Translations under genes and position numbers: made by a program
From: Escherichia phage bumzen
DNA length: 64,000 nt
Strand: one strand, 5' to 3'
Sequence record: MN850635.1
The notes under the pieces: model-generated
Told to the model about the DNA's origin: nothing
What the model saw: the letters and a program-made list of their open reading frames with translations, nothing else
Database searches by the model: none
Part shown: positions 3,933 through 4,015 of the stretch, in pieces
Layout of the letters: every line of letters starts with the position of its first letter
Position numbering within the stretch: position 1 is the stretch's first letter

Positions 3933-4015
3933 GTGGGACGATGTTAAGACTCTAAGGCATGAGCAACGGCCTCCAAAACCGTTTCAAAGTGGTTCAACTC
4001 CTCCGTCCCATGCCA
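3933..4015 (+). tRNA. tRNA-Trp (anticodon CCA) with enlarged D region
   Basis: Acceptor GTGGGAC/GTCCCAT; anticodon arm ACGGC-CTCCAAA-ACCGT; T-loop TTCAACT; about 7 extra nt between acceptor and D-stem; CCA encoded. Confidence 0.45.

Follow-up and report, generated by a model that had tools for sequence, protein, structure and literature searches.

The 64,000-nucleotide stretch of DNA from Escherichia phage bumzen analyzed here (MN850635.1; hereafter the window) contains an 83-nucleotide element at positions 3933–4015 of the plus strand that folds as a cloverleaf with the anticodon CCA, a discriminator G, and an encoded CCA end. Judging from the sequence and its relatives, the element is probably an expressed and selected gene for an irregular tryptophan transfer RNA (tRNA-Trp) of Felix O1-like phages (Ounavirinae). 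An initial annotation of this DNA had proposed either a functional but atypical tRNA-Trp or a degenerated copy, and the former is favored by compensatory changes in the stems, invariant tRNA marks, a fixed genomic slot, and the standing of the element as the only Trp candidate of its phage. The irregularity lies mainly between the acceptor stem and the D stem, where the 2-nucleotide connector (U8-N9) of a canonical tRNA is absent and is replaced by GAUGUUAAG (9 nucleotides, or 11 nucleotides in Pectobacterium phages).

Conservation and Covariation Across Phages

A 98-nucleotide stretch around the element was found in 235 phage records at 75–100% identity, including members of Felixounavirus, Mooglevirus, Suspvirus, and the Pectobacterium Ounavirinae. 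The element is also present in metagenomic relatives and in the type phage Felix O1. In the approximately 95 records listed, a tRNA annotation is lacking throughout, and the position is labeled “hypothetical protein” or “promoter” or carries no annotation. The copies were reduced to 12 distinct haplotypes, with sequences from Mooglevirus, Suspvirus, Pectobacterium Ounavirinae, and two divergent metagenomic phages, and aligned using MAFFT.

Among these 12 haplotypes, 98.2% of the stem cells form standard pairs, compared to 31–52% when the 3′ partners are slid by 1–3 columns, and 9 of the 19 pairs have changes on both sides. The observed values were reached by only 0–1 of 500 shuffles. Covariation is seen in all four helices and in at least four phage lineages as well as in the metagenomes. 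In the acceptor stem, pair 1-72 covaries (AU/GU/GC), with A1-U72 in 7 of the 12 haplotypes and G.U in the window, and pair 2-71 occurs as U-A and C-G, while G3-C70 and G5-C68 are present in all copies. In the D stem, pair 12-23 occurs as U-A and A-U and pair 13-22 as C-G, U.G, and U-A; by eye, the metagenomic variant L064 has G-C at 12-23, but MAFFT misplaces a base and counts this cell as unpaired, so that the overall count is conservative. The anticodon stem is paired in 100% of the cells and has double compensatory changes in four of its five pairs, with 27-43 occurring as A-U, U-A, C-G, and U.G, 28-42 as C-G, A-U, and U-A, and 29-41 as G-C, A-U, and U-A. The adjoining pair 26-44 occurs as A-U, G-C, and G.U. 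In the T stem, pair 50-64 occurs as G-C and U-A, and the sole unpaired cell of this stem in the alignment is a U.U in the window copy.

RNAalifold, with no structure supplied, returned the same cloverleaf with one additional pair, G8-C65 (G3940-C4004 in the window), resulting in an 8-base-pair (bp) acceptor stem and a 4-bp T stem. This eighth acceptor pair is also present in the minimum free energy fold of the single sequence. As both of its bases are invariant, the pair is not supported by covariation, and the stems might instead be 7/5, with A49.C65 as a mismatch. The predicted folds make 8/4 the more likely arrangement.

The anticodon CCA, U33, A37, G73, and the encoded CCA end do not vary in any haplotype, whereas positions 32 and 38 do vary (the anticodon loop of Felix O1 is UUCCAAC). 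The pattern of substitutions thus indicates that the element is a tRNA-shaped RNA under purifying selection, and neither a chance fold nor a pseudogene.

Probable tRNA-Trp Identity and Genomic Slot

The element is located within a tRNA cluster (1776–7048, plus strand) for which ARAGORN predicts 25 tRNAs covering 19 amino acids, with only Trp absent; 24 tRNAs were identified by Rfam at the gathering threshold. Counting the candidate and a second tRNA-like gene at 3352–3433, the CCA end is encoded by 26 of the 27 tRNA genes in the cluster. The element is always found between tRNA-Arg(TCT) and tRNA-Ser(TGA), including on the divergent metagenomic contigs L058 and L064. Approximately 23 other Ounavirinae (wV8, phiSUSP1, Sf19, VpaE1_ev78, and others) have an unrelated 71-nucleotide tRNA-Trp(CCA) with a shortened D arm in the same slot. 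Because the slot holds another tRNA-Trp in these sister phages, its function would be that of a tRNA-Trp, which argues that the 83- and 71-nucleotide genes are functionally equivalent alleles that have replaced one another.

In VpaE1_ev78 (region 2140–2629), wV8, phiSUSP1, and Sf19, the 71-nucleotide allele, whose D arm is nearly absent, has an additional gene for an HNH endonuclease directly after it, and this linkage suggests co-conversion by a free-standing homing endonuclease. Relatives of this allele with approximately 78% identity occur in Vibrio phages.

The identity set of the E. coli tryptophanyl-tRNA synthetase (TrpRS) reportedly consists of the anticodon CCA, G73, A1-U72, and G5-C68. 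Further determinants in the acceptor stem are G2-C71 and G3-C70. In the element, CCA and G73 are invariant and G3-C70 and G5-C68 are present, while 1-72 is G.U in the window and 2-71 is U-A. The tRNA-Trp of E. coli is encoded by a single gene copy (5426 genomes). The genome paper of Felix O1 reports 22 tRNAs identified by tRNAscan-SE, none of which is for Trp (PMC3185647), and no description of a Trp tRNA in Felix-like phages was found in the literature.

Escherichia phage tootiki (Felixounavirus, Ounavirinae) shares region 3300–4130 of the window with 100% identity, and many Felix O1-like phages share it with 95–99% identity. The first open reading frame (ORF) of the window, on the other hand, is closer to phage ASO1A (99.8%) than to tootiki (97.2%), and the tootiki annotation could not be mapped onto the DNA polymerase region of the window. 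The genome represented by the window is therefore a mosaic Felixounavirus.

Anatomy of the Element and Detection by tRNA Finders

The features described in the initial annotation were confirmed, including the total length of 83 nucleotides and a canonical acceptor stem and T loop. The acceptor stem consists of GTGGGAC (3933–3939) paired over 7 bp with GTCCCAT (4005–4011), beginning with G1.U72 (A-U in most relatives), and is followed by G73 at 4012 and the encoded CCA at 4013–4015. The linker between the acceptor and D stems, initially given as approximately 8 nucleotides, is the 9-nucleotide sequence at 3940–3948, an extra connector or “E-loop” in place of the U8 and N9 of canonical tRNAs. 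The D arm (3949–3964) is weak, as had been noted, with three Watson-Crick pairs (C3950-G3963, T3951-A3962, and C3952-G3961) and an A3949.C3964 mismatch, and its loop TAAGGCAT (3953–3960) includes G18 and G19.

The anticodon arm (3965–3983) contains the sequence ACGGC-CTCCAAA-ACCGT at 3966–3982, in which 3966–3969 pair with 3979–3982, and is extended by pair 26-44 (A3965-T3983). A C3970.A3978 mismatch (31-39) at the bottom of the stem is kept across the family. The loop CTCCAAA is located at 3971–3977, with the anticodon CCA at 3973–3975. The near-identity of this arm to that of bacterial tRNA-Trp, as noted in the initial annotation, amounts to 14 of 17 positions shared with E. coli (sequence verified in 5426 genomes). 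The variable region TCAA (3984–3987), which extends to A3988 if the T stem has 4 bp, is the same in all homologs of the alignment and is 4–5 nucleotides long. The T arm (3988–4004) has the sequence AGTGG-TTCAACT-CCTCC, with pairs G3989-C4003, G3991-C4001, and G3992-C4000, and the loop TTCAACT at 3993–3999. Its mismatches in the window copy are A3988.C4004 (49-65) and T3990.T4002 (51-63), the latter being U.U here versus G.U in relatives. Nucleotides involved in tertiary contacts are present, including the GG of the D loop, a T loop of UUCAACU or UUCGAAU closed by G-C, U33, and A37.

Compared to the family consensus, the window copy has two substitutions, A1 to G (resulting in G.U) and G51 to U (resulting in a T-stem U.U mismatch). 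Several phage isolates, independent of one another, have the same variant, which is therefore a tolerated form, slightly weaker than the consensus, although some erosion of the Trp gene in the lineage of the window is conceivable.

ARAGORN made no call on 3933–4015 in its standard, relaxed, or intron modes. With the option -ps80, it returned an implausible “tRNA-???” with a four-base anticodon, and mtRNA-Trp(cca) was called by the metazoan mitochondrial mode only. The Rfam tRNA model (RF00005) did not match 3933–4015 at the gathering threshold, and the best match among the generic models of the clan (CL00001) was tRNA-Sec with 21.3 bits against a threshold of 47 (E = 0.054 in a 281-nucleotide search). 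Four divergent homologs likewise matched the tRNA-Sec model only, with 17.6–22.1 bits. The minimum free energy of the single sequence (-19.5 kcal/mol, z = -0.56 versus shuffles) is uninformative. In contrast, when 4–6 nucleotides of the linker were removed in silico, ARAGORN called tRNA-Trp(cca) in four of the five haplotypes tested. Since trimming the linker restores the call, it is the extra linker that causes the gene to escape the finders. A covariance model built from the family scored the candidate at 107.5 bits and the canonical tRNAs of the window, aligned end-to-end, at 15–38 bits, and it identified no second copy in the window.

The initial annotation had proposed that the candidate be given up if no covariance model supported a tRNA at this position. 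Generic models indeed fail and ARAGORN is silent, but this test is inadequate for an irregular tRNA, and had generic models been the only criterion, the finding would have been discarded.

The Invariant Extra Loop

All copies seen have the linker GATGTTAAG without any change, in contrast to the variable stems around it, and no invariant stretch of the alignment is longer than the 15 columns to which it belongs. Pectobacterium phages have two further bases after the linker. A search pattern anchored on the 3′ half of the element only recovered 17 viral and 10 metagenomic loci, all of which are loop-bearing, and no copy in 185,579 bacterial and archaeal genomes. Neither loop-less relatives nor bacterial ancestors were thus among the 3′-half matches in viral, metagenomic, or bacterial and archaeal sequences. 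A loop-based pattern had 10 matches in bacterial genomes (chance estimate approximately 12), all scoring ≤13.6 bits with the family model.

In the proposed fold, connector 1 would occupy the D stem's deep groove, beside the variable region. No conserved pairing partner for the linker was identified in the D loop, leader, or trailer. Pairing of AUGU in the linker with GCAU in the D loop was rejected because the variants remain pairable by wobble only and because this pairing, together with the D stem, would imply an implausible pseudoknot whose third loop has a length of zero. A pairing between TTAAGAC and GTCTTAT of the 3′ trailer is not kept in Arno162, L058, or L064, and pairing with the 5′ leader was rejected as the leader is not conserved. 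A different D stem, TGTT/AGCA, as drawn in the alignment to the tRNA-Sec model, is broken in Sf16, whereas CTC/GAG covaries. Coding was also rejected as the cause of linker invariance, on grounds given below together with the ORF.

Proposed Function and Alternative Explanations

As a gene for tRNA-Trp, the element would be co-transcribed with the cluster, and its product, once matured at the encoded CCA end, would be charged with tryptophan by the host TrpRS. The irregular tRNA would then read UGG, supplementing the single-copy tRNA-Trp of the host and completing a phage set for 20 amino acids. The loop of extra bases, which probably projects outward at the point where the variable arms of class II tRNAs emerge, a direction that the ribosome would tolerate, may serve as a sequence-specific handle or a tertiary element. 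With 8/4 stems, the acceptor/T stack would still have the 12 bp that EF-Tu expects, and tRNAs with 8/4 stems are known to work in E. coli translation (PMC5389517).

Several observations weigh against a functional tRNA-Trp. To our knowledge, a 9-nucleotide connector is without precedent in a tRNA shown to work in translation. Generic tRNA models reject the window copy and all homologs. Position 8 is G instead of U, 10-25 and 31-39 are conserved mismatches, and pair 2-71 is U-A compared to the G-C of E. coli tRNA-Trp. The window copy has the extra U.U in its T stem, and the acceptor stem of the metagenomic variant L064 is poorly paired. Moreover, the one comparable “E-loop” tRNA that has been tested was not chargeable by the E. 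coli enzymes tried (PMC5389517).

A role outside of translation is possible but doubtful. The tRNA-shaped RNA might act as a decoy or sponge that captures a host nuclease or other enzyme directed at tRNAs, as a processing signal, or as the ligand of a phage RNA-binding protein, with recognition through the loop. The strict invariance of the linker amid changing stems is consistent with such a role, a gene for a DUF2828 or “Ro-like RNA-binding protein” adjoins the cluster, and the failed charging of irregular E-loop tRNAs in vitro points in the same direction. Defense systems that target tRNAs and cut tRNA-Trp also exist (PMC12916289). However, for most known nucleases, a molecule that is only a decoy would not require the CCA anticodon, A37, G73, the 1-72 pair, and the CCA end all together. 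Sister phages fill the slot with another tRNA-Trp, the element completes a set of tRNAs that otherwise covers 19 amino acids, and DUF2828 is widespread in phages without the element. A Y RNA-like (YrlA) partner of a Ro-type protein was also considered and rejected, as the window has no such Rfam match and the ends of the element form an acceptor stem with GCCA.

The charged tRNA-Trp may, in addition to UGG, read UGA as a near-cognate codon in the manner of a “Hirsh-type” suppressor, resulting in programmed or global low-level readthrough, although this is unlikely. Reading of UGA is promoted by mutations at positions 9 and 24 of E. coli tRNA-Trp and by an unpinned anticodon stem in tRNA-Trp(CCA) (PMC13092985). 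Both phage Trp alleles are irregular in the D region while the 24 other tRNAs of the cluster are regular, and the conserved 31-39 mismatch leaves four Watson-Crick pairs plus 26-44 in the anticodon stem. The published effect of a 4-bp stem, however, concerns the top pair, which is intact and covaries in the phage element. TGA ends 10 of the 53 long ORFs on the plus strand, and the next in-frame stop follows at a median of 4.5 codons versus 5 codons for TAA genes. In-frame extensions past TGA are few and unremarkable, and the longest (39511–42240, minus strand) runs into an adjacent 177-codon ORF. Neither the in-frame extensions nor tandem stops after TGA thus give a signal of UGA readthrough, in what is a low-power test.

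The abnormal D regions of both Trp alleles hint that the abnormality itself is perhaps a selected trait. It is tentatively suggested, with little confidence, that the element represents a natural tRNA with a 9-nucleotide E-loop and 8/4 stems that is charged by TrpRS and competent on the ribosome, and whose altered D region was selected for a changed function. One possibility for such a function is Hirsh-like reading of UGA as Trp; alternatively, a factor acting on the host tRNA-Trp could be evaded by the phage tRNA or could recognize it.

A decaying tRNA-Trp pseudogene is highly improbable. Decay may account for the failure of gene finders on 3933–4015, for the mismatches at 10-25, 31-39, and 49-65 (plus 51-63 in the window copy), and for a single-sequence fold no better than shuffles, but not for the compensatory changes seen in each of the four helices and in at least four lineages plus the metagenomes. 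Furthermore, the mismatches are themselves conserved, and the anticodon and CCA end are found in every copy. That the conservation arises from a small 37-codon ORF starting with GTG at 3930, or from a promoter or other DNA signal, as some GenBank records imply by annotating “hypothetical protein” or “promoter” there, is scarcely credible because the start codon is missing in Mooglevirus (GTA in Sf16), the substitutions are paired as RNA but non-synonymous as protein, the third codon positions of the linker are all invariant, and a promoter scan shows no promoter-like site inside the element.

Other Features In and Around the Cluster

The tRNA-like gene at 3352–3433 (plus strand) is a second irregular gene of the cluster, with the anticodon TCT (Arg). 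It has a 7-bp acceptor stem, a normal anticodon arm, T arm, and CCA, only TATCTCA in place of the D arm, and a conserved 22-nucleotide insert, CGTTAACCGAGTAAGTGGAGTAT, at the variable position. The gene scores 33.4 bits with the Rfam tRNA model while ARAGORN is silent, and its acceptor, anticodon, and T stems covary. Copies with approximately 85–88% identity are found in unrelated phages, including the jumbo phages 121Q and 7t3, Justusliebigvirus W22, and Klebsiella Mydovirus, where they are annotated as tRNA-TERM, tRNA-Leu(taa), tRNA-OTHER, or not at all. Mooglevirus and Pectobacterium phages have a canonical tRNA-Arg(TCT) at this slot.

An ORF for an HNH homing endonuclease (3397–3795, plus strand) is located between the two irregular tRNAs and is missing in many sister phages (e.g., Meda). 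Its longest form starts at GTG 3397, as in the tootiki annotation, and overlaps the tRNA-like gene; ATG 3448, as annotated in VpaE1_ev78, is likely the real start. In Pectobacterium phages (L005, 1386–1499), L058, and L064, a conserved ORF of approximately 37 amino acids (KRFAICxxSGxxLFTT...FGW) is found between tRNA-Arg(TCT) and the Trp gene, at a position where Felix-type phages have the HNH gene or nothing.

The spacer directly upstream of the Trp gene (3796–3932, plus strand) shows strong conservation between genera, and none of 200 shuffles folds as well (z = -3.0). Within it, AGGAGGTGGTC..TATCTC precedes a hairpin with covariation in divergent phages (CATGTT/AACATG in the window, CGTG/CACG in L058, and CCAGAC/GTCTGG in L064). 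The spacer also has a weak promoter-like sequence, TTTACA (3892–3897) and TAAGCT (3915–3920) separated by 17 nucleotides, in which the -35 element is TTGACA in Sf16; the site was not called by the scan.

Elsewhere in the cluster, tRNA-Met (2028–2104) and tRNA-Tyr (2267–2354), both on the plus strand, were called by ARAGORN and are below the Rfam gathering threshold, indicating that the cluster holds further borderline tRNAs. The same two genes are listed as low-scoring or “pseudo” in the Felix O1 paper (PMC3185647). Directly upstream of the cluster is a DUF2828/vWA ORF (195–1610, plus strand), annotated elsewhere as “Ro-like RNA-binding protein,” with homologs in 709 phage records ranging from mycobacteriophages to Listeria and Vibrio phages.

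Significance

If functional, the irregular tRNA-Trp would be a natural tRNA with a non-canonical core working in E. coli and Salmonella, the best-studied translation systems. According to a recent paper (PMC11551756), every bacterial tRNA known is a canonical cloverleaf. The tRNA inventory of the Felix O1 family would also be corrected, as with the Trp gene it would include tRNAs for all 20 amino acids. The element exposes insertions in connector 1 as a blind spot of tRNAscan-SE, ARAGORN, and Rfam, and its conserved 9-nucleotide loop could reveal a new contact between a tRNA and a protein or the ribosome.

Comparison With Known Systems

The closest counterpart in the host is E. coli tRNA-Trp(CCA), encoded by trpT. 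The two share an identical anticodon loop (CUCCAAA), G73, the encoded CCA, A1-U72 (in most family members), G3-C70, G5-C68, the GAGC of the 3′ strand of the D stem, A26, a short variable loop, and a UUCRA-type T loop. The phage element differs in having a 9-nucleotide connector instead of U8-A9, G at position 8, the mismatches A10.C25 and C31.A39, U-A at 2-71, and either an A49.C65 mismatch or 8/4 stems. Similarity is low beyond the anticodon arm, and the phage element is undetected by RF00005 or ARAGORN. It is thus a tryptophan-type element that lacks two defining features of a canonical tRNA, as it does not have the 2-nucleotide connector and does not reach the model thresholds.

The element also resembles 8/4 tRNAs and the “(8/4) tRNA1 with E-loop” (Mukai et al., 2017, PMC5389517; PMC7609411) in its predicted 8-bp acceptor and 4-bp T stems (12 bp in total), the extra loop between the acceptor and D stems, and sub-threshold matches to the tRNA-Sec model. 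Such 8/4 tRNAs (Ser and His) are known from phage tRNA clusters (PMC5389517; PMC7609411). Most 8/4 tRNAs, however, are class II and Sec/Ser-like, with long variable arms and longer anticodon stems, whereas the phage element has a short variable loop. The E-loop examples originate from acidobacterial metatranscriptomes and have a GCU anticodon and U73, in contrast to CCA and G73 here. Neither a Trp member nor a member from an enterobacterial phage was found for this class in the literature. With tRNA-Sec itself (RF01852), the element shares a longer acceptor stem and, in the model alignment, an anticodon stem of six positions, but it has CCA instead of UCA and neither a long variable arm nor a 6-bp D stem.

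The Hirsh suppressor (G24A, A9C) and tRNA-Trp with a 4-bp anticodon stem (PMC13092985) are similar in that the CCA anticodon is unchanged while the D arm, connector, or anticodon stem is altered. Those tRNAs have point changes or have lost the top anticodon pair, whereas the phage element has a 7-nucleotide insertion and a mismatch at the bottom pair. Finally, the 71-nucleotide tRNA-Trp(CCA) allele of the sister phages is unrelated in sequence outside of the anticodon loop, has a shortened D arm with no preceding insertion, is linked to an HNH gene, and is detected by ARAGORN, with records annotating it as tRNA-Trp, tRNA-OTHER, or pseudo. Despite these differences, both alleles have the same slot, anticodon loop, A1-U72, G73, CCA end, and an irregular D region.

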